This document shows positions 22,877 through 60,047 of a stretch of 64,000 nucleotides of DNA, one piece after another. The notes under the pieces are model-generated. The model worked only from the letters and a program-made list of their open reading frames with translations. It made no database searches and was not told where the DNA came from. How positions within the stretch are numbered: position 1 is the first letter of the stretch; every line of letters starts with the position of its first letter. The translations under genes and the position numbers were made by a program. Source of the DNA: a virus. Lineage: Duplodnaviria; Caudoviricetes. The stretch lies in the IMG/VR virus record IMGVR_UViG_3300027759_000044; one strand, written 5' to 3'.

Positions 22877-23112
22877 TGGGATTTCGTAAACAAATAGACT
22901 ATAATTCAGTACATCATCAAATCTATATGTCTGGTGTAGAATTACATAGTAACTACAATGATGGATTCAATCAATTTGAAATCAAAAAAGACTTACATCG
23001 TATTAAATGGTTGATTGATGAGATTATGGCTGATGCCCCCACATTTGTAGGTGAGGATGAATTCTTAAAAGAACATGAACAAACTAAAATGTGGAGAACA
23101 CTTTCAAAATGA
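22876..23112 (+). CDS. Small hypothetical protein
   Basis: TAATG-coupled ORF. Confidence 0.65.
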   Translation: MGFRKQIDYNSVHHQIYMSGVELHSNYNDGFNQFEIKKDLHRIKWLIDEIMADAPTFVGEDEFLKEHEQTKMWRTLSK

Positions 23113-23576
23113 TATTTAATCATATTAAAGAACTTAAGGCACAGGGTAAAAAGATTGGCATTACCTTTAGCACGTTTGATATGCTTCACGCAGGTCACGT
23201 TGCTATGTTAAGCGAAGCAAAAAATCACTGTGATTACTTGATTTGTGGACTACAAACTGACCCAACAATTGATAGACCTGATACTAAAAATAAACCTATT
23301 CAAAGTATTGTAGAACGACAGATACAACTTGCGGCTTGTCGTTATGTTGATGAAGTAGTGGTATATCAAACTGAACAAGACTTAATTGACTTGTTATTGA
23401 TATTACCATTAGATGTTCGTATTTTGGGTACAGAGTATGAGGATAAAAACTTTACTGGCCGTAATGAGGGAGCAGGTCGTGCTATACAAGTAATATTTAA
23501 TAAACGTGACCACAGTTTCAGCAGTTCAAGTCTACGCAAACGTGTAGCAGAAGCAGAGAAAAACAAAAATGCCTAA
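23109..23576 (+). CDS. Cytidylyltransferase (TagD/RfaE-like)
   Basis: FSTFDMLHAGH (HxGH), GLQTDP..DRP, ER..QL and SSSSLR. ATGA-coupled start. Confidence 0.85.
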   Translation: MIFNHIKELKAQGKKIGITFSTFDMLHAGHVAMLSEAKNHCDYLICGLQTDPTIDRPDTKNKPIQSIVERQIQLAACRYVDEVVVYQTEQDLIDLLLILPLDVRILGTEYEDKNFTGRNEGAGRAIQVIFNKRDHSFSSSSLRKRVAEAEKNKNA

Positions 23577-24366
23577 AAGAATATTAGTAATGGGTTTACC
23601 GGGTGCTGGTAAAACTTATCTAGCACAACATATTGTAGACCACTTACAAGCAGAAAAGAAAAAAGTAAGTTGGCTAAATGCTGACGATGTGCGTAAGAAG
23701 TACAATGATTGGGACTTTAGTACAGAAGGGCGTGTTCGTCAAAGTTTACGTATGCGTGAACTAGCAGATAATATGACTGAATGTGATTATGTAATCTGTG
23801 ACTTTGTTGCACCATTGGTTGAGATGCGTAATAACTTTAAAGCAGATTGGACTGTTTGGGTTGACACTATCGACAAAGGTCGTTATGAAGATACAAACAA
23901 AGCATTTATTCCACCTGAAGTGTATGACTTTAGAATTAATGAACAGAAAAGTGAAAAGTGGAGTGAGTTTATTGCCGCACATATATTAGATAACAGACGT
24001 AGACCAGTATTTGATTGGCAAAAAGAAACTGTACAGATGTTAGGTCGTTGGCAACCATGGCATGAAGGACATCGTAAGTTGTTTGAACGTGCTATTACCA
24101 AGACTGGACAAGTAGTTATTCAGATTAGAGATTGTCAAGGTTGGCAAGGAAGTAATCCTTTTGCTATTGACCAAGTAAAGAGTTTTATTAAACGTGATTT
24201 AGATATGCTATATCAGGGTCAATATGAGATTCAAATTGTGCCAAATATTGTAAATATAACATATGGGCGTGATGTTGGATATAAGATTGAACAAGAAACG
24301 TTTGATGACGCTACTCATAATATTAGTGCTACTAAAATCCGAAAAAGTTTAGGATTTGGTAAATAA
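23569..24366 (+). CDS. Adenylylsulfate-kinase-like P-loop kinase fused to an HxGH nucleotidyltransferase
   Basis: GLPGAGKT, LNADDVR, then GRWQPWHEGH and ISATKIR. Confidence 0.8.
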   Translation: MPKRILVMGLPGAGKTYLAQHIVDHLQAEKKKVSWLNADDVRKKYNDWDFSTEGRVRQSLRMRELADNMTECDYVICDFVAPLVEMRNNFKADWTVWVDTIDKGRYEDTNKAFIPPEVYDFRINEQKSEKWSEFIAAHILDNRRRPVFDWQKETVQMLGRWQPWHEGHRKLFERAITKTGQVVIQIRDCQGWQGSNPFAIDQVKSFIKRDLDMLYQGQYEIQIVPNIVNITYGRDVGYKIEQETFDDATHNISATKIRKSLGFGK

Positions 24367-24370
24367 AGAT

Positions 24371-24433
24371 AGCGGTCTCGGCGTCATCCCGCTTTACAAA
24401 CTCTGCTGCCTATGCTATAATACAACATAGGAG
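24371..24433 (+). ncRNA. Candidate riboswitch resembling preQ1 class I, plus an SD-sequestering hairpin, in the queD leader
   Basis: P1 AGCGG/CCGCT, 13-nt loop, AC-rich tail, loop-tail pseudoknot options, and CCTATG/CATAGG hairpin covering AGGAG. Confidence 0.45.
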
Positions 24434-24439
24434 AACACA

Positions 24440-24922
24440 ATGGCAAACAAAAAATTCTTTTCAACAAAGACATACAGACAAATAGGGCCTGTCGCATACC
24501 GTCAATGGCGTGCCGACAGTCATTGTAACTTAATTCATGGCTATGCTATGAGTTTTCACTTTGAGTTTGAGGCTGACACACTAGATGCCCGTAACTGGGT
24601 AACTGATTTCGGTGGATTACGCCCTCTTAAAGATAAACTAGAAGAATGGTTTGACCATACTCTATTAGTCGCACAAGATGACCCCATGCGTGAACATCTA
24701 TTAGAACTAGGTAGATTGAAATTAGCTAAGATTACCGAAGTAGAACGCACTGGTTGTGAAGGTATATCTGACTTCTTATATGAATACATTAACACAATCT
24801 TTTTACCTAACTGCGGTAGTGAAGAAGCTAAACGTGTATGGTGCTGTAGAGTAGAGGTCCGTGAGACTGATAGCAATATGGCAGGACGTAGTGGTCATAG
24901 AGAAGATAGAGAGTTTGAATAA
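24440..24922 (+). CDS. queD: 6-carboxytetrahydropterin synthase
   Basis: HCNLIHGY, WVTDFG, FDHTLL, GCEG and VEVRET. Confidence 0.92.
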   Translation: MANKKFFSTKTYRQIGPVAYRQWRADSHCNLIHGYAMSFHFEFEADTLDARNWVTDFGGLRPLKDKLEEWFDHTLLVAQDDPMREHLLELGRLKLAKITEVERTGCEGISDFLYEYINTIFLPNCGSEEAKRVWCCRVEVRETDSNMAGRSGHREDREFE

Positions 24923-25338
24923 TGTTGAAAACAGAAATAGTAGATAAGGTAGGACATACCTTAGTAGACATATTTCATAGGCTTGCATTGTTTGGTATTG
25001 GTGCCGCAACAGTATGGGCTGCCGGTTGGACTTTTGCTGAACTGTTTCAAAAACATCACGCTACAGTTGGTGACCTGTTATTAATGTTTATCTATTTGGA
25101 AATAGGTGCAATGGTAGGCATTTATTTCAAGACCAATCATATGCCTGTCAGGTTCCTGCTATACATTGCAATAACAGCACTGACACGACATATGGTAGAT
25201 ATAATGAGTCATCAGCCAATTAATGTTGTTGAAATGTTAGCTGTAGCCGGCTCTACATTTGTTATAGCAATAAGCGTATTAGTTATTAGATATACTAGCG
25301 CAAAATATCCTAGTAACAATAAAGATGAGGTAGCTTAA
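24922..25338 (+). CDS. psiE: Phosphate-starvation-inducible PsiE family membrane protein
   Basis: LLLMFIYLEIGAMVGIYFKTNHMPVRFLLYIAITALTR. Confidence 0.8.
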   Translation: MLKTEIVDKVGHTLVDIFHRLALFGIGAATVWAAGWTFAELFQKHHATVGDLLLMFIYLEIGAMVGIYFKTNHMPVRFLLYIAITALTRHMVDIMSHQPINVVEMLAVAGSTFVIAISVLVIRYTSAKYPSNNKDEVA

Positions 25339-25384
25339 ATGCTTGAAACAATTTGTCAAATTGTACTATCAGGGAAATATTAAA

Positions 25385-26017
25385 ATGAGTTTTTTAGTAG
25401 CAAATTTACCACCAGTAAAATGTTTTGTTCGTAGAGAATTTCTGTATGACTTTGAGAAAGGTCACGGTGAACTCGAACCTTGCTGGTGGATATCAATAAA
25501 ATCTCAACGTAGCCAAGCATTTCGTATTGAATCATATTTAAATCAGTATGGTGCACTATATGATAAACTTCCATTACACGCATATTGTTGGAAACCCATA
25601 GAAGGTGAACCGTATCCTTTAGACTTTTTACAATTATGGAATAGTATGTCTTATGATATTACTGTAATTAAAAAAGCAATGATAGCAAATATGAGATGTA
25701 AAATTAAAATGAAAGATGGGTCGTGGTTAGAAGGAGAATATCTTTTTACTGTTGATTCCGCACATCCAGATTTTAATACAATAGATTGCGGTCATAGTGA
25801 AGATGTTGAGGATCACAAAAGTTTTAACTTTATTAAATGTGATAATGGTCAATTTGCCGCACAACCAAATAATCGTATTGTTATTTTAGAACCAGCAAGT
25901 AATCCTAAAGAAATGAAGATACCAGATTTTAATGTCGCTACTACTAGATGGAATGTTGAAATGGATCCAAAATGGGACTATGGACTGCCAGAAAACAAAT
26001 GGAGAATGAATGAATAG
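25385..26017 (+). CDS. Conserved-looking hypothetical protein
   Basis: VANLPP..CFVRREFLYD and GQFAAQPNNR; start moved from 25343. Confidence 0.7.
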   Translation: MSFLVANLPPVKCFVRREFLYDFEKGHGELEPCWWISIKSQRSQAFRIESYLNQYGALYDKLPLHAYCWKPIEGEPYPLDFLQLWNSMSYDITVIKKAMIANMRCKIKMKDGSWLEGEYLFTVDSAHPDFNTIDCGHSEDVEDHKSFNFIKCDNGQFAAQPNNRIVILEPASNPKEMKIPDFNVATTRWNVEMDPKWDYGLPENKWRMNE

Positions 26018-27296: not shown

Positions 27297-27473
27297 ATGT
27301 ATGAATTAAGATATCTTGTCCAAAAAGGTTTGGATAATCCAAAAAAAGTGTTACAATATAGAACACAAATTGAATTTACCGATTATAGTTCTAAGACTGA
27401 TGATGGTAGATATATATCAATAAAAAAATGGGCTGAATGGCAAAATGTGCCTATAATAGATGAAACAAAATGA
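27297..27473 (+). CDS. 58-aa hypothetical protein (below the ORF-track cutoff)
   Basis: MYELRYLVQK...W.EWQNVPIIDETK; fills the gap and is ATGA-coupled to the next gene. Confidence 0.6.
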   Translation: MYELRYLVQKGLDNPKKVLQYRTQIEFTDYSSKTDDGRYISIKKWAEWQNVPIIDETK

Positions 27474-28807
27474 AAACGTATGATAAACGAATTGGCTTTT
27501 TAGTAAGCTATCAAACACTTATTCCTCATGGGGGAATAGGGCAATTTACTAAAAGTTTTTGTGAATTAATGGATCAACATAATATCAAAGTTGATATTAT
27601 TACAGACAAAGAACCACAAGATACTGAGTTTATAAAATCTATTCCTGCAAATATCATTGCACCATTAGAGTCATTAAAGTATACTGACCATAGCAATATC
27701 TTTATGTATGGTGATACATTTTGCTATGAACGAATGGCTAACTTCCGTACAGCAATTGTAGAAGCACTAGAACATAATCTATATGATTCATTAATTTGTA
27801 ACACATATGAAACAGTACAAGTGGCCAGTAATATGGGGCTTGAAGATTGTATTCAAATCATTGCTTACACACACTTAGAAAGTCAAATTTTTAAAGATAC
27901 AAAGAATCCTTTCTTGTTAAACACTAACGAAATGATGCGTCAACAATTAGAAACATCAGGTGTGTATGTGGGTACACAAAGTAAGTTTAATCAAGTAAAC
28001 ATTAGTAATACAGCATATCATTTACCTATTCCTATTACAGAAAAAGATTTATTAAAAGAACATCATAAGCCACGTGAAGGTATATTATTTGTTGGACGAT
28101 GGGAAGAAGGTAAAAATCCTGAATTGTTCTTAGATTTAATTGAACAAACAAAATTGCCCGCTAAAGTAATGACTAGTGCTAATGGTGCCAAAAAGTTTGA
28201 AGAACGACTACAAAAGATTGGTGTACCCTACGAAATTCGTGTAAGTATTATTGGCAAAGAGAAAGTAGATTTTATTACAAGTGCTAGAATTGCTTTTAAC
28301 CCAAGTACAGTAGAGAGTTACGGAATGGCTTTTTATGAACAACATATTCAAATGCCCACACTTGTATTAGAAAATCAACGCTGGCCTAATAACTTTAATA
28401 AAGATTTCTTTTACACTTGTACTAAGAAAGATATGGCAAGTAAAGCAAAAGAGTTATACGATATTTTTGAAAAAGCAGAGAGATGGTATAATTTAGGTTC
28501 ACTACAACACGCACAGGAACAAGAAGCCAGTGTTTATCATAAATGGGCAGAATGTTTTAGAGACTTTAAGCCTAAACAATCTAATAGTAATACGGCAAAG
28601 ATTTGTAGCGAGAATACAGTAAGGTTACAAGATTATATTAATGATTTAAACCGTAGTATTATTTGTATTGATGATGTGCGTAGTGTATTAACTAATAAGC
28701 ATAAGTTTAGAGTTATCTATACCGATGACGATACATATTTAACAAAAGACCCTAGTTTTGAACCAGAAGAAGAAACAGAAGGTCTATCATTATTTGAGGG
28801 TTTATGA
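27470..28807 (+). CDS. GT-B (family 4-like) glycosyltransferase
   Basis: PHGGIGQF, LFVGRWEEGKNPE and PSTVESYGMAFYE. Confidence 0.85.
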   Translation: MKTYDKRIGFLVSYQTLIPHGGIGQFTKSFCELMDQHNIKVDIITDKEPQDTEFIKSIPANIIAPLESLKYTDHSNIFMYGDTFCYERMANFRTAIVEALEHNLYDSLICNTYETVQVASNMGLEDCIQIIAYTHLESQIFKDTKNPFLLNTNEMMRQQLETSGVYVGTQSKFNQVNISNTAYHLPIPITEKDLLKEHHKPREGILFVGRWEEGKNPELFLDLIEQTKLPAKVMTSANGAKKFEERLQKIGVPYEIRVSIIGKEKVDFITSARIAFNPSTVESYGMAFYEQHIQMPTLVLENQRWPNNFNKDFFYTCTKKDMASKAKELYDIFEKAERWYNLGSLQHAQEQEASVYHKWAECFRDFKPKQSNSNTAKICSENTVRLQDYINDLNRSIICIDDVRSVLTNKHKFRVIYTDDDTYLTKDPSFEPEEETEGLSLFEGL

Positions 28808-29529
28808 AAATTGCATTTTTTGGTGATAGCTATTCGGACGTAGGCATAGAAGAATATAGAACAGGTACTGCCTGGCCTGAAGTATTGACTACATTAGTGT
28901 CGGCAAAGAATTCAGGATATTATGGTGTATGTGGTTCTTCAATATGGTATTCGTATACCCAACTGTTAAAATATATAGATAAACATGATGTTATTATATT
29001 CTGTTATAGTTCTGCTTATCGTTGGCCGTGTTTACCTGATCAGTTATTAGGTAGTAATTATAGGGTACATGAGAATTTTGATAAAAATCAACAGATGTCC
29101 AAATATATTGATGTATATAGTGATTTATTTACTGATGAGTTTTTAGAATTTACAGCCTCAAGTATTTTTACAGCAGTTAATAAATTATGCAAAGAGCGTA
29201 ATAAGTTTCTAATAAATGTATGTTGTTTTGGCAAAGAGATCTGGAATCGCACTCCTACTAACTATCCTGTATTTTTTAATATGGATGAAATTTCAATAAA
29301 TGAAACAGTTATTCAATATGGTAAAGTCGTCACTATGCGAGAAGTCATTCATAATCAAAGTGTCAATGACAAACGCCATTGTCATTTAAACGCTCCCAAT
29401 AATAAATTATTAGCTGAAATATTCAAAGATATTATAGAAAATAAAATATCTAATGTGGAAAGTGACTTATATAGTGAATATGATTGGGTAAGATTTGATC
29501 CACAAGTGGATGAATGGTTTGGTAAATAA
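28804..29529 (+). CDS. SGNH-hydrolase-like hypothetical protein
   Basis: IAFFGDSY, G..GSS and a C-terminal CHL motif. Confidence 0.5.
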   Translation: MKIAFFGDSYSDVGIEEYRTGTAWPEVLTTLVSAKNSGYYGVCGSSIWYSYTQLLKYIDKHDVIIFCYSSAYRWPCLPDQLLGSNYRVHENFDKNQQMSKYIDVYSDLFTDEFLEFTASSIFTAVNKLCKERNKFLINVCCFGKEIWNRTPTNYPVFFNMDEISINETVIQYGKVVTMREVIHNQSVNDKRHCHLNAPNNKLLAEIFKDIIENKISNVESDLYSEYDWVRFDPQVDEWFGK

Positions 29530-29530
29530 T

Positions 29531-30358
29531 ATGAAAAAAGTTTTAATTACAGGATGTTCAGGATATATCGGAAGTCATCTATCTAAGATGTTAGCTAATG
29601 ATTATGAAGTTCATGGCTTAGATATTGATGAACCTCAAGCACCACTAAATGAATTTTATCGTTGTGATATCAATAGACCATTTGTTATTCCAAACGACAT
29701 TGAATATGATAGTGTGATTCATTTAGCGGCATTAGTACGTGTAGGTGAAAGTGAACAAATACCTATCAAATACTATATCACTAATTTGAATGGGACAATG
29801 AATGTTATTAATAAGATAAAGACTAAAAACTTTATCTTTGCTAGTACAGGGGCGGCACAAGATTGTTCTAGTGCTTATGGTATCAGTAAACGTGCCGCCG
29901 AAGATGTTGTTAAAGAATATTGTACACAACACAAAAAACAAGATTATACTATCTTTAGATTCTATAACGTTATAGGAAGTGAAGGTTATGAACCAACTAA
30001 TCCTGATGGATTGATGTATAATCTAATAAAAGCCAGAACTACAAAAGAATTCACAATTTTTGGAGATGATTACAATACAAGTGATGGAACATGTGTACGT
30101 GATTATGTTCATGTAAATGAAATATGTGACGCATTGAAACAATCAATTGAAAAGCCCAGTAATAGTATAGAATGTTTAGGTCACGGTGTCGGAAAAACAG
30201 TAATTGATATTGTCAATATGTTTAAAGAAGTAAACAATATTGATTTTGAAGTTAAAGTGGGCCCAAGAAGAAAGGGTGACATTGAATCTAGTGTACTAGC
30301 TAATGTATCACCCTATATGCGTAATCTATATTATATGGAAGAGTTGTTGAAAGTTTAA
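29531..30358 (+). CDS. NAD-dependent sugar epimerase (GalE-like)
   Basis: VLITGCSGYIG, HLAAL, YGISK, FRFYNV.G, CVRDYVHV and RR.GD. Start moved from 29495. Confidence 0.9.
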   Translation: MKKVLITGCSGYIGSHLSKMLANDYEVHGLDIDEPQAPLNEFYRCDINRPFVIPNDIEYDSVIHLAALVRVGESEQIPIKYYITNLNGTMNVINKIKTKNFIFASTGAAQDCSSAYGISKRAAEDVVKEYCTQHKKQDYTIFRFYNVIGSEGYEPTNPDGLMYNLIKARTTKEFTIFGDDYNTSDGTCVRDYVHVNEICDALKQSIEKPSNSIECLGHGVGKTVIDIVNMFKEVNNIDFEVKVGPRRKGDIESSVLANVSPYMRNLYYMEELLKV

Positions 30359-33667: not shown

Positions 33668-34693
33668 TTGACAAATCAATCTATCAAACGCATCGGCTTT
33701 GCTTGTAAATGGGCAGAAATTAACAGTAAAGGTGAGATTGTTTCAGCCGAAGGTCTTAATACGGGTGGAACTACACAAGCATGGGCAAAGCGCAATAATC
33801 GTAGTGTAGTAGAAGAAAAGATTATGGATGTTGCTAAACGCAATATTATGAATACTCACGCATTGGTTAAGCGTGTTGCTACATTAGAACCCGAATTGCG
33901 TATGGTTCGTCTTACTAGCGATATGTTGAGTTTTTATACTATGGATGGTTACAAAGAATTTTGGCAAAGTACTGATGTACAGAATAGCTTACAACGTTGG
34001 ATGGCACCCATTGGTGAAACAGCTAGGGCTAACGATGTTCGTCTTAGTTTTCATCCTGACCAATTTGTAGTTTTAGCAAGTGACCGTGAAGAAGTAGTAA
34101 ATAAGAGTATAGAAGAATTTGAATATCATTGTGACATGGCCCGCATGATGGGTTATGGGCAGAAGTTTCAGGATATCAAAATCAATGTTCACATCTCTGG
34201 TAGAAAAGGTCCTCAGGGTATCAGAGATGTTTATGGTAGACTTAGCCCCGAGGCACGAAACACACTTACATTAGAAAATGAAGAATACACACATGATCTT
34301 ACAGACTGCTTATCATTATCTGACCTCGTACCTACGGTCATGGACATCCATCACCACTGGATTAAAACTGGAGAATATATTCAACCGACTGATGATCGGG
34401 TTAAAATGGTTAGGGATAGTTGGCGTGGTTTGCGCCCTACTTGCCATTACTCCGTCAGCCGTGAGGACGTACTTGTTGGACATCCCGGATCACAGTTACC
34501 CGCTCATGGTGCGTTGATAGAAGCCGGACATAGTAAACAGAAGCTTCGGGCACATAGTGATTATTATTGGAACGAAGCGGTAAACGATTGGGCATTGACA
34601 TTCTTAGATAACTTTGATATAATGTGTGAATCAAAGGCAAAGAATCTTGCCAGCTTTAAACTATACGAAAGATACAAATGTTTGACAAAATAA
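33668..34693 (+). CDS. uvsE: UV damage endonuclease
   Basis: RIGFACK, MVRLTSD, RLSFHPDQFVVL, LENEE, DIHHH, HYS, AHSDY and DIMCESKAKN. The ORF-track start at 33626 lies inside the promoter, so TTG 33668 is preferred. Confidence 0.88.
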   Translation: MTNQSIKRIGFACKWAEINSKGEIVSAEGLNTGGTTQAWAKRNNRSVVEEKIMDVAKRNIMNTHALVKRVATLEPELRMVRLTSDMLSFYTMDGYKEFWQSTDVQNSLQRWMAPIGETARANDVRLSFHPDQFVVLASDREEVVNKSIEEFEYHCDMARMMGYGQKFQDIKINVHISGRKGPQGIRDVYGRLSPEARNTLTLENEEYTHDLTDCLSLSDLVPTVMDIHHHWIKTGEYIQPTDDRVKMVRDSWRGLRPTCHYSVSREDVLVGHPGSQLPAHGALIEAGHSKQKLRAHSDYYWNEAVNDWALTFLDNFDIMCESKAKNLASFKLYERYKCLTK

Positions 34694-36875: not shown

Positions 36876-36904
36876 TTGACAATAAAGCCAACCGAGTGTA
36901 TAAT
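36876..36904 (+). promoter_or_regulatory. sigma70-type early promoter
   Basis: TTGACA-N17-TATAAT, perfect consensus. Confidence 0.85.
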
Positions 36905-37158: not shown

Positions 37159-37187
37159 TTGACATTAAATGGAACTTGTGCTATAAT
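37159..37187 (+). promoter_or_regulatory. sigma70-type early promoter
   Basis: TTGACA-N17-TATAAT, perfect consensus. Confidence 0.85.
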
Positions 37188-47195: not shown

Positions 47196-47245
47196 ATTTG
47201 ACAATAAATGGATTTGGGCTTATAATAGAATCTTAAACAGTTAAA
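47194..47245 (+). promoter_or_regulatory. Extended early promoter repeat, copy B
   Basis: AAATTTGACAATAAATGGAT..TATAATAGAATCTTAAACAGTTAAA. Confidence 0.85.
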
Positions 47246-49518: not shown

Positions 49519-50003
49519 TGGCTATCTTATATCGCATCAAACCACAAGATAAAAAATCTATTGAGGCATACTATGATGTTTATAGTAAAGATGAACAAGG
49601 TAATATCCGCAGTTGGAGTGTAACCGAAACATATCGTTGGGGTCAAGGATTCGTAGAAGATGAATCTGAGTTACCTTTTAGTGATGATAGAGAACATATT
49701 GTAGATTCTGAAATTGGGTGGGGATGTGAACTTGATGACCTTTGTGCTTGTTGGTTTGAGTTTGATGATAGCTTTACTGATGAAGAAAAAGCCGAAATTG
49801 AACAAGCATGGGAAGATGGTGGAGCAGGATGGCTATATGATAGTGAACATAAATGGGAAGTTGACTATGAAAGTATAACTATTTTGGGTCCATATATAGT
49901 TGACAAAGTTGACGAAGATGTGTATAATGTAAGTATTGAAACAATAGAACTTAAACCCCGTCCACCTTTTGTAGCAACAACAGCGTGGCCATTCTCAGGA
50001 TAA
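49518..50003 (+). CDS. Acidic hypothetical protein
   Basis: TAATG-coupled; D/E- and W-rich. Confidence 0.7.
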   Translation: MAILYRIKPQDKKSIEAYYDVYSKDEQGNIRSWSVTETYRWGQGFVEDESELPFSDDREHIVDSEIGWGCELDDLCACWFEFDDSFTDEEKAEIEQAWEDGGAGWLYDSEHKWEVDYESITILGPYIVDKVDEDVYNVSIETIELKPRPPFVATTAWPFSG

Positions 50004-57632: not shown

Positions 57633-59528
57633 ATGAGCAAAGTAATCGGTATCGACCTAGGTACCACAAATTCATGTGTAGCCGTTATTGAAAACGGAAT
57701 TCCCAAAATAATTGAAAACAGCGAAGGTGCAAGAACTACTCCATCAATCGTTGCCTATGCCAATGATGAGATCCTAGTAGGTGCTAGTGCTAAACGTCAA
57801 TCAGTTACGAACCCAAAAAACACTATCTATGCTGCCAAGCGATTAATTGGACGTAAGTTCACTGAACAAGCCGTTCAAAAAGATATTGACTTGATGCCAT
57901 ATAAAATCGTTAAAAACGAGAATGGTGATGCATGGGTAGAAGTATTAGATAAAAAACTAGCACCCCCTCAAATTAGTGCTGAAGTCTTACGTAAAATGAA
58001 AAAGACTGCCGAGGATTATCTCGGTAAAGAAGTAACACAAGCTGTTATTACTGTACCGGCTTACTTTAACGATAGTCAACGTCAAGCTACTAAAGATGCA
58101 GGACGTATTGCAGGATTAGAAGTACTACGTATTATCAACGAACCTACAGCGGCTGCATTAGCATATGGTGTAGACAAACAAGACAAGAAGGATCGTAAGA
58201 TTGCTGTCTATGACTTGGGTGGTGGTACATTTGACGTATCTATTATTGAATTAGCAGATGTTGAGGGCGAAACTCAAATTGAAGTATTATCAACTAACGG
58301 TGATACATTCTTAGGTGGTGAAGACTTTGACCAACGTATCATGGACTATTTAGTTGACGAGTTTAAGAAAGACAATGCGGTTGATCTTAAGAAAGATATG
58401 CTAGCACTACAGCGTTTAAAAGAAGCGGCTGAGAAGGCTAAGATTGAATTGTCAAGTTCAGCACAAACAGATGTTAACTTACCATATATTACAGCCGATG
58501 CTAATGGTCCTAAACATTTGAATGTTAAGTTAAGTCGTGCTAAATTAGAATCATTAGTTGATGAATTAATTCAACGTAGTATTCAACCATGTAAGCAAGC
58601 AATGACTGATGCAGGTGTTTCTACATCTGATATTGATGAAGTTATTCTTGTTGGTGGTATGACACGTATGCCAAAAGTACAAGAAATTGTTGAATCATTG
58701 TTCGGTAAAGCACCTCGCAAGGATGTTAATCCAGACGAGGCAGTGGCAGCGGGTGCGGCACTTCAAGGTAGTGTATTAGCTGGTGAACGTACAGACGTAT
58801 TGTTACTTGATGTTACCCCATTAAGTTTGGGTATTGAAACATCAGGCGGTGTGTTTACTAAGTTGATTAAGAAGAATACAACTATTCCAACTAAACATTC
58901 ACAAGTGTTTTCAACAGCAGATGACAATCAACCAGCTGTAACTATTAAGGTTGCACAAGGTGAACGTGATTTGTTTACATACAATAAGATATTAGGTGAA
59001 TTTAATTTAGAGGGTATTCCACCTTCAATGCGTGGTGTTCCTCAGATTGAAGTTACCTTAGATATTGATGCTAACGGTATTCTTAATGTAAGTGCCAAAG
59101 ACAAAGGTACAGGCAAAGAGAATAAAATCACTATCAAATCTGATTCTGGATTAACTGAAAAAGAAATTCAACAGATGGTTAATGATGCTGAAGAAAATGC
59201 TGAATCTGATGCTAAACAAGTTAAATTCATTCAAGCAAAAAATAGCGGTGAATCAACCTTGAACAGTTTCCGTAAAGATTATGAAAAATACGGTGACAAA
59301 GTTACATCGGAAGAAAAAGAAAAAGCATCCAATGCTATTGATGCTTTGGAAGTTGCATTAGCTGGAACTGACGTTGAAGAAATTGACAACAAAGTTAAAG
59401 AACTATATGAAGCTATTGGTCCTGTTACTAAGGTTAAATCCGAAGAGGAACAAAAAGCTAAAGAAACATCTGAATCACAAAAGTCTGACGACAATGTGGT
59501 TGATGCAGAGGTTAAGGAATCAACTTAA
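57633..59528 (+). CDS. dnaK: Chaperone DnaK (Hsp70)
   Basis: [34 protein letters not shown] and VGGMTRMP. Confidence 0.98.
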
Positions 59529-59538
59529 CCTAAACAAA

Positions 59539-59591
59539 ATCGGGTGCCGCATTCGGCGGGCCCGATATCGTCATAACTTGCTTATTAGGAG
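59539..59591 (+). promoter_or_regulatory. ROSE-like RNA thermometer leader of hsp20
   Basis: GC-rich hairpin ATCGGG..CCCGAT, then CTTGCT-TATT-AGGAG (UUGCU paired to the SD). Confidence 0.6.
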
Positions 59592-59597
59592 AAAAAC

Positions 59598-60047
59598 ATG
59601 ACAACAAAAACACTAACCCTTCGTGCCATTGATATTCCATCAATTCACAAATTTGGCATCGGATTTGATTCCATGCTAGATAAATTAATGCTAGCCACAG
59701 CCGGGCAAACAAATACTAACTATCCACCTCACAATGTTATTAAAACAGGTGAGGAGACTGTAACCATTGAGATTGCTGTAGCTGGATTTGGTGAGAACGA
59801 TTTAGATATAAAATTAGATAGTAATGCTTTAATTATATCCGGTTCTAAATCACGTGAAGAAATGCTTAACTATGAATATTTACATAGAGGATTGAGTAAT
59901 AGAGATTTTACTCAAACATTCCCTTTAGCTGAACATGTTGAAGTTATACATGCTGAAGTAAAGAACGGGATTCTTTCTGTTTATTTGGAACGTAAAATTC
60001 CAGAAGAAAAGAAGCCGAAATCTATTGCTATTACTTACACTAAGTAA
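59598..60047 (+). CDS. Small heat shock protein Hsp20 (IbpA-like)
   Basis: NYPPHNV, IEIAVAGF, YLHRGL..R.F..F.LA and NGIL.V.L.R.IPEEKKP.SI.I. Confidence 0.95.
   Translation: MTTKTLTLRAIDIPSIHKFGIGFDSMLDKLMLATAGQTNTNYPPHNVIKTGEETVTIEIAVAGFGENDLDIKLDSNALIISGSKSREEMLNYEYLHRGLSNRDFTQTFPLAEHVEVIHAEVKNGILSVYLERKIPEEKKPKSIAITYTK

Follow-up and report, generated by a model that had tools for sequence, protein, structure and literature searches.

Does the short leader of a queD-like phage gene act as an RNA switch, and to what might such a switch respond? The question is raised by a gap of 73 nt that separates two ORFs, one with its end at 24366 and the other, of 160 aa, with its start at 24440, in the window, i.e., the whole 64,000-nt stretch of lake phage DNA analysed here (IMG/VR record IMGVR_UViG_3300027759_000044). 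An earlier note, made from the letters of this DNA, had placed in the gap a structured RNA switch similar to the preQ1-I riboswitch, with the caveat that a promoter overlaps the element. The comparison with the leaders of related phages indicates that the leader is very probably a functional, structured cis-regulatory RNA. A more specific reading, in which a small H-type pseudoknot aptamer works as a small-molecule translational ON riboswitch for the queD-like gene, seems to us reasonably probable; here, we infer both the binding and the direction in vivo.

Architecture of the queD Leader

The motif fills the gap between the two ORFs, the upstream one resembling, in a profile search, a kinase joined to a nucleotidyltransferase. 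P1, the GGCG/UGCC pairing, the CCUAUG/CAUAGG hairpin, AGGAG, TTTACA, and TATAAT, all named in the earlier note, were each found by a sequence check of the window exactly where that note had placed them, and the features of the leader, like the queD-like gene, all lie on the plus strand. Helix P1 is formed by AGCGG (24371–24375) and CCGCU (24389–24393) and starts, in the clade of the window, 5 nt after the upstream stop codon. Its 13-nt loop (24376–24388) spans three parts: L1, UCUC (24376–24379), with a consensus of N-C-U followed by a variable, mostly pyrimidine stretch; the 5′ strand of P2, GGCG (24380–24383); and L2, UCAUC (24384–24388), whose C24388 lies directly 5′ of the P1 3′ strand, in the place of the preQ1-I specificity cytosine. 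Downstream of P1 comes the 13-nt L3, UUACAAACUCUGC (24394–24406; consensus W-U-A-Y-A-A-A-Y-U-C-U-G-C), and then the 3′ strand of P2, UGCC (24407–24410).

The last two bases of P2, C24409–C24410, also belong to a Shine-Dalgarno (SD) sequestering hairpin (24409–24431), in which CCUAUG (24409–24414) pairs with CAUAGG (24426–24431) around an 11-nt loop. The SD sequence itself, AGGAG (24429–24433), lies 6 nt before the ATG at 24440, and its A24429, G24430, and G24431 are paired in the hairpin. The minimum free energy of the window leader (z = +0.5 versus shuffles) corresponds to a fold no more stable than that of shuffled sequence, which counts against the riboswitch reading; the case rests on the comparison with other phages.

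Distribution of the Motif and Its Link to queD

Among deposited phage records, megablast found no match, and distant blastn searches returned short coding matches only. The queD-like protein has hundreds of relatives among IMG/VR contigs, some of them 230–524 kb long. The upstream regions of the first set of queD-like genes gave 57 distinct leaders, nearly all of which keep the motif with P1 changed compensatorily. To avoid circularity, a gene-blind scan was performed, in which a 14-base pattern from L2-P1-L3 was searched against IMG/VR and gene content was ignored. The motif filter demanded a perfect P1, the cytosine before the P1 3′ strand, the L3 core, and some loop letters (C-U of L1); P2 was never selected. 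The collected loci contained 191 motif instances in which P1, this cytosine, and the L3 core were all present. The nearest ORF downstream is queD-like for 183 of these, with 35–100% amino acid identity to the window protein. In most of the remaining eight, one extra gene, encoding a cupin, a CmoB-like methyltransferase, or a more canonical QueD, precedes queD. A second, more divergent set of queD-like genes carried the motif at 50 of 80 loci and added new clades, including those with P1 of UGCGG/CCGCA and AGUGG/CCACU.

As sampled here, the motif comes from phage contigs only, with more than 120 distinct IMG/VR leaders. Bacterial and archaeal genomes, searched with a pattern that covered about half of the family and whose outcome does not thereby prove cellular absence, gave three matches (two Idiomarina MAGs and one Saccharibacteria MAG), all lacking P1; these look like chance occurrences inside other sequence.

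A covariance model of the leader matched the 64-kb window once, with 87 bits (13 bits for the next best match), and also found one match in each of four phage genomes of 230–352 kb. One match per genome, with queD downstream, points to a single-copy, gene-specific element. The second-best match in the window (59507–59600; 13 bits, E 0.6) has ACAAA..UC.G..UGCC in common with the leader, together with GGAGAAAAACAUG ahead of the ORF at 59598; chance probably accounts for it. The 524,565-bp IMG/VR record that contributed two leaders (L013 and L048) contains two copies of queD with the motif, which are separated by about 470 kb, oppositely oriented, and each matched by the model; the assembly may have fused two related genomes. 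The aptamer is also represented in contigs from lake RNA libraries, one of which spans the upstream gene, the aptamer, and queD. These contigs, in which strand, starts, and level are not readable and which may stem from DNA carry-over, are weakly indicative of transcription through the aptamer.

Covariation of P1 and the Pseudoknot Helix P2

Five compensatory types of P1 occur among the leaders: AGCGG/CCGCU, ACCGG/CCGGU, AGAGG/CCUCU, UGCGG/CCGCA, and AGUGG/CCACU. When one mismatch was allowed in P1, 128 of 139 candidates were still perfectly paired; the 100% pairing of P1 in alignment A1 (MAFFT, sequence alone, 134 leaders) is partly by construction, as the filter required P1. P2 was outside the filter and hence provides a clean test. 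It was assessed in A1 and in a second alignment, A3 (MAFFT, sequence alone, 128 distinct aptamers including the new clades), the use of which was restricted to P2 because the P1 5′ strand was misplaced in some rows.

In A1, 82% of the cells of four P2 pairs were paired, versus 35–51% with the partner slid, and three of the four pairs changed on both sides. In A3, five P2 pairs were paired in 78.4% of cells, versus 52.0 ± 1.6 in shuffles (0/500 reached the observed value) and 22–53% in slid controls; double-sided changes occurred in all five pairs, the innermost one being represented by UA (32), AU (28), GC (22), and CG (19). An alignment-free permutation gave the same picture: the longest helix between loop and tail had a mean length of 4.06 when each leader was combined with its own tail, versus 3.50 ± 0.08 with the tails of other leaders (0/2000). 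P2 is G+C-rich and comprises 4 bp in the window and 4–6 bp elsewhere, with matched strands such as GGCG:CGCC, GGUG:CACC, GGAA:UUCC, GAAC:GUUC, GACA:UGUC, GGGC:GUCC, GACGC:GUGUC, GGCAU:AUGCC, UGGUA:UACCA, and GACAA:UUGUC.

The covariation analysis of homologous queD leaders that the earlier note had called for thus reveals covariation in both P1 and P2 across more than 120 distinct leaders, and the pairing of GGCG (24380–24383) with UGCC (24407–24410) that it had suggested covaries strongly. Its alternative pairing, between CGG of the loop and CUG of the tail, was rejected as unsupported: CUG lies inside the invariant UCUGC and displays no covariation, and CUGC stays invariant while P1 changes. 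The AGCGG:CUGCU helix of the minimum-energy fold was discarded as well, as CUGC is invariant and P1 varies to ACCGG, AGAGG, and UGCGG. Judged from the alignments, the pseudoknot composed of P1 and P2 is a real structure.

Conserved Unpaired Bases

The L2 sequence UCAUC is found in about 87% of the distinct aptamers, and UC precedes the P1 3′ strand in 112 of 128. The final C of L2 and the C-U of L1 were filter requirements; the former is also present in all motif-bearing queD leaders gathered without that requirement. L3 has 13 nt in 127 of 128 aptamers, with a near-invariant A-rich part and UCUGC, and L1 starts with U, C, or A, followed by C-U and 1–8 further bases. Altogether, about 20 unpaired positions are near invariant across the aptamers. 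The conservation of the unpaired UCAUC and AAAYUCUGC fits a putative binding pocket.

The invariance of the unpaired bases and the strict association with one gene would also be compatible with a protein site. The pseudoknot could be an operator for the queD-like enzyme itself or for a phage translational regulator, with no metabolite involved, in the way of the pseudoknot of T4 gene 32 mRNA; there are known cases of a phage protein that binds a pseudoknot in its own mRNA (gp32; cited in PMC10690425). Autoregulation by a co-evolving protein is hard to reconcile with an aptamer that remains constant while the queD-like proteins diverge to 35% identity and form several subfamilies, and with the occasional presence of another gene in the first position. 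In its small size, its cytosine adjacent to P1, and its A-rich L3, the motif is similar to pseudoknot aptamers for small molecules. We regard a protein operator as unlikely.

Expression Platforms and the Predicted Direction of Control

The SD hairpin CCUAUG/CAUAGG is itself supported by comparison, with 95.6% of cells paired and double-sided changes in A1. The window hairpin has a predicted energy of −5.7 kcal/mol, and the remnant left once two C residues are taken by P2 has +0.5 kcal/mol; formation of P2, which takes C24409–C24410, is therefore expected to abolish the hairpin. This arrangement is recurrent: in minimum-energy folds of the platform only, bases of the P2 3′ strand pair with the SD (64 leaders) or with the start codon/AUG region (47 leaders), giving a total of 111 of 119 leaders. 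The proposals of the earlier note that GGCG/UGCC competes with the SD-hiding hairpin and that the queD leader contains a structured RNA switch are both upheld by these data and by the covariation of the H-type pseudoknot.

The platforms that hide the SD include CCUAUG/CAUAGG, GUCUUC/GGAGAC, and CUCUAUU/AAUAGAG, and those that hide the start codon include CCAUUG/CAAUGG and UGUCAUC/GAUGGCA. One aptamer, found in the leader of its linked gene in 183 of 191 instances, is thus combined with at least four unrelated platform designs. The joining of a single aptamer to several expression platforms is, as read from these sequences, the classic signature of a riboswitch.

Since the 3′ strand of P2 is the anti-SD or anti-AUG strand, a stabilised pseudoknot should turn translation ON, a direction that the earlier note had not specified and that is predicted from the wiring of the structure. 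In the absence of the ligand, the 6-bp hairpin CCUAUG/CAUAGG would hide part of the SD; ligand binding would stabilise the pseudoknot so that P2 takes C24409–C24410, the rest of the hairpin would fall apart, and the ribosome-binding site would open. ON control of a biosynthetic gene is unusual, which counts against the riboswitch reading.

Predicted Promoters in and around the Leader

The same DNA contains a sigma70-like promoter (24393–24421) with TTTACA (24393–24398), a 17-nt spacer, and TGnTATAAT (TATAAT at 24416–24421), which is the best promoter-like site in 10 kb (11/12 + TG). The CCUAUG/CAUAGG platform is shared by 73 distinct leaders, whose loop hexamer retains T1 and A2 in 73/73 and T6 in 71/73, with position 3 variable; the remaining loop varies in length and sequence, and the spacer to T(T/A)TACA has 17 or 18 nt. 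The constraint on the loop hexamer has the pattern of a sigma70 −10 element, and the embedded promoter looks genuine. The caveat of a promoter overlapping the element was thus well placed, with TAnnnT conserved in 71–73 of 73 loops. Five perfect 12/12 TTGACA-17-TATAAT sites are present on the plus strand of the window (34595–34623, 36876–36904, 37159–37187, 47198–47226, and 49900–49928), mainly in the gaps that precede ORFs; host-type promoters are thus evidently in use in this phage.

With its −35 element in L3 and its −10 element in the hairpin loop, the embedded promoter would initiate near 24428, inside the 3′ strand of the hairpin, and would yield an mRNA that lacks both the aptamer and the anti-SD strand and would be translated constitutively. 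We think that both readings hold true, i.e., that the switch operates on long transcripts and that the internal promoter, presumably in use, supplies an open message. Should the embedded promoter give rise to most queD transcripts, the aptamer would matter little in the clade of the window, which also counts against the riboswitch reading.

A stem-loop followed by a near-consensus sigma70 promoter has the exact layout of the PeSL cassettes (PMC4122927), and the promoter looks functional, so the locus could be a DNA element only, a composite stem-loop terminator with an early promoter and no RNA switch. Such cassettes occur in multiple copies before many genes, whereas the phage motif is single-copy and tied to queD. 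The covariation between the loop and the promoter spacer has no explanation at the level of DNA and already contradicts this possibility, and clades without the −10 element nonetheless keep the aptamer. There is no U run after the P1 stem in many members, which read CCGGUAUAC; P1 with UUU as an intrinsic terminator was rejected on this ground, and the site is absent from the terminator scan list. A DNA element alone is, in our view, highly implausible.

Other clades place a promoter differently. In several of them, a consensus TTGACN-17-TATAAT promoter ends 7–8 nt before P1 and there is no upstream ORF; such spacing implies that the aptamer opens the transcript. One such clade (L225, L230, L242, L253, L260, L264, L267, L270, and L280, at about 1400–1503 in each) has the sigma70 promoter 7–8 nt before P1 of the UGCGG/CCGCA type and a CCAUUG/CAAUGG platform that hides the start codon, not the SD. 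Transcripts of this kind bear on the idea of a ligand-independent RNA device, in which folding kinetics, temperature, upstream translation, or RNA stability sets translation. In the clade of the window, P1 lies so close to the upstream stop that a terminating ribosome would melt it, and the two states are close in energy. The start of the transcript at the aptamer, with no upstream ORF, in other clades speaks against such a device, and the approximately 20 near-invariant unpaired positions far exceed the need of simple competing helices. We therefore hold it to be quite improbable and retain the ligand-responsive switch as the preferred reading.

Of 128 distinct upstream contexts, 52 have a TAAATA motif 9–16 nt ahead of P1, as is often the case in the clade of the window; in the window itself, the motif (24360–24365) overlaps the upstream stop codon. 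It is a candidate phage late-type promoter, from which transcripts would start at about P1. ATAAATA also occurs 4–40 nt before ORF starts elsewhere in the window (1948, 20809, 43947, and 61546; also 38251 and 60063), e.g., in ATAAATAC, with the ATG within a few bases. The distribution of ATAAATA/TAAATA hints at a T4-like late promoter motif with very short leaders.

The queD-like Gene and Its Pathway

The gene downstream of the leader (24440–24922) encodes a T-fold protein of 160 aa that matches Pfam PTPS (3e-15) and phrog_2389, annotated as ‘QueD-like’ (2.4e-41), and that reaches 33.5 bits versus a cut-off of 89 in the NCBIfam QueD model. It contains SHCNLIHGY, and solved QueD homologues have HGH. 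By these features, the protein is divergent and may be no standard CPH4 synthase. The divergence of the enzyme (HGY, score below the QueD cut-off) makes guesses about the ligand from pathway logic soft. In one clade (L245:1076-2022), a more canonical QueD (CSHLHGHNY, 76.6 bits) separates the motif from an HGY-type paralogue, and two further loci, L284 and L286, carry two different queD-like paralogues in tandem after the motif.

The earlier note had claimed that the pathway lacks QueC, and no full-length QueC was found in the complete close relatives; this absence fits a phage pathway that stops short of preQ0/preQ1. A search of relatives with the Pfam TGT model gave no DpdA match, which says nothing on the presence of DpdA. 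Two ORFs lie between the queD-like and the queE-like gene (24922–26017), one for a PsiE-family membrane protein, whose start overlaps the queD stop by one base, and one for a 224-aa protein matching phrog_3704 (‘ferredoxin’) without a Pfam hit. The deazaguanine genes are flanked by sugar-nucleotide genes (23091–24366 and 27470–30358), resembling a heptose-1-phosphate adenylyltransferase, a kinase with nucleotidyltransferase, a group-1 glycosyltransferase, and an NAD-dependent epimerase, which may belong to a pathway for a glycosylated base or a surface sugar.

The candidate ligand would most likely be a guanine-faced heterocycle from or near this pathway: a 7-deazaguanine (CDG, DG, preQ0, or preQ1), guanine, or a pterin, e.g., dihydroneopterin triphosphate. 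In its fullest form, which we put forward tentatively, as possible rather than probable, the proposal is that the leader belongs to an uncatalogued riboswitch class that has a fold like that of preQ1-I, recognises another guanine-faced metabolite (dihydroneopterin triphosphate, CDG, 7-deazaguanine, or free guanine), and switches ON the first dedicated enzyme of DNA hypermodification. The same DNA would double as an early promoter, the gene being constitutive early and ligand-gated on longer transcripts.

Riboswitches are reported to be very rare in phages; the only examples recovered in one survey were of the c-di-GMP-I and glutamine classes, and the survey raised the possibility that phages use classes still to be discovered (PMC5473149). 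The present candidate occurs abundantly among phages of lakes, some of them represented by complete genomes of about 350 kb, and its covariation is unusually clear for its size. It is associated with a pathway by which guanine is replaced in phage DNA, and the identity of the ligand would show which signal times DNA hypermodification. If the proposal is true, the motif provides a naturally occurring ON switch that is compact, at about 45 nt, and a case from nature with which to study how the preQ1-I fold can be rewired, and the overlap of aptamer and promoter within the same 50 bp constitutes an instructive case of dual coding.

Comparison with Known Systems

When the whole window was searched with Rfam at the gathering score, no family matched. 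The preQ1-I model RF00522 (gathering score of 39 bits) had no match in the window and, with E ≤ 10 allowed, also failed to match the AGAGG variant L077 and the 201 nt surrounding the leader; in the genomes of five relatives, its best matches reached at most 19.7 bits, a chance level, and none lay on the queD leader. None of the Rfam preQ1 models, a search with which the earlier note had recommended, matches the leader. Low-score Rfam matches near it (PsrR1, aspC, Pseudomon-1, and a snoRNA) were dismissed as being on the wrong strand and at chance level. As Rfam offers no match, nothing borrowed from a known class supports ligand binding. No description of the motif was found in Rfam 15 or in the searchable literature; it may be among the more than 10,000 unnamed candidates of a viral structured-RNA catalogue (PMC10690425).

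The PeSL cassettes of T4-like phages are composites of a stem-loop terminator and a promoter; each genome carries them in many copies, ahead of unrelated ORFs, and they mediate shuffling (PMC2839356, PMC4122927). The phage motif resembles them in that a stem-loop directly precedes a near-consensus sigma70 promoter, with overlap of the two, within a large phage genome but differs in being single-copy and gene-specific and in its loop-to-spacer covariation.

In the T4 genes e and soc, long transcripts hide the ribosome-binding site in a hairpin, and a promoter inside the hairpin gives open transcripts (see also PMC3014915). The likeness of the queD leader to this type of SD unmasking comprises a −10 element in the loop of the SD hairpin, a predicted start in the 3′ strand of the hairpin, and a promoter-derived mRNA without the anti-SD strand. 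In contrast to the T4 cases, its long transcript carries a covarying pseudoknot able to release the SD, and its internal promoter is sigma70-like, not late-type.

The resemblance to preQ1-I claimed by the earlier note (RF00522; types I–III, e.g., B. subtilis queC, T. tengcongensis, C. antarcticum, and E. coli) stands as far as the general plan is concerned: a small H-type pseudoknot with a 5-bp P1 and a short P2, a cytosine directly 5′ of the P1 3′ strand, an A-rich L3 after P1, control of translation via SD accessibility, and a link to a gene of the 7-deazaguanine pathway. Even the dinucleotide that precedes the P1 3′ strand, UC, is characteristic of type I, with AC in types II and III (PMC11625349). 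The resemblance does not extend to a match with RF00522, to the loops, or to the regulatory logic. Members of the preQ1-I family have a short L1, UU in types I and III, and a short A-rich L3 that runs straight into P2/SD, and the preQ1 riboswitches reviewed in the same work follow OFF logic, in which ligand binding buries the SD or forms a terminator (PMC11625349). The L1 of the phage motif, in contrast, consists of N-C-U with 1–8 extra bases, its L3 is fixed at 13 nt with a non-A block, YUCUGC, before P2 and an invariant UCUGC end, and its P2 excludes the SD and has its 3′ strand in the anti-SD/anti-AUG strand, so that binding is predicted to switch ON.

An ordinary preQ1-I switch that binds preQ1 or preQ0, turns queD OFF, and is too divergent for the Rfam model would explain the shared plan, the type I UC, the A-rich L3, and the association with a gene of the queuosine/deazaguanine family. 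We consider it very unlikely in view of the failure of RF00522 to match the leader at E ≤ 10 (its weak matches in the relatives' genomes lie elsewhere), the loop differences, the opposite wiring of P2, and complete relatives that lack a full QueC. The motif is best read, on comparative grounds, as a new preQ1-I-like riboswitch candidate.
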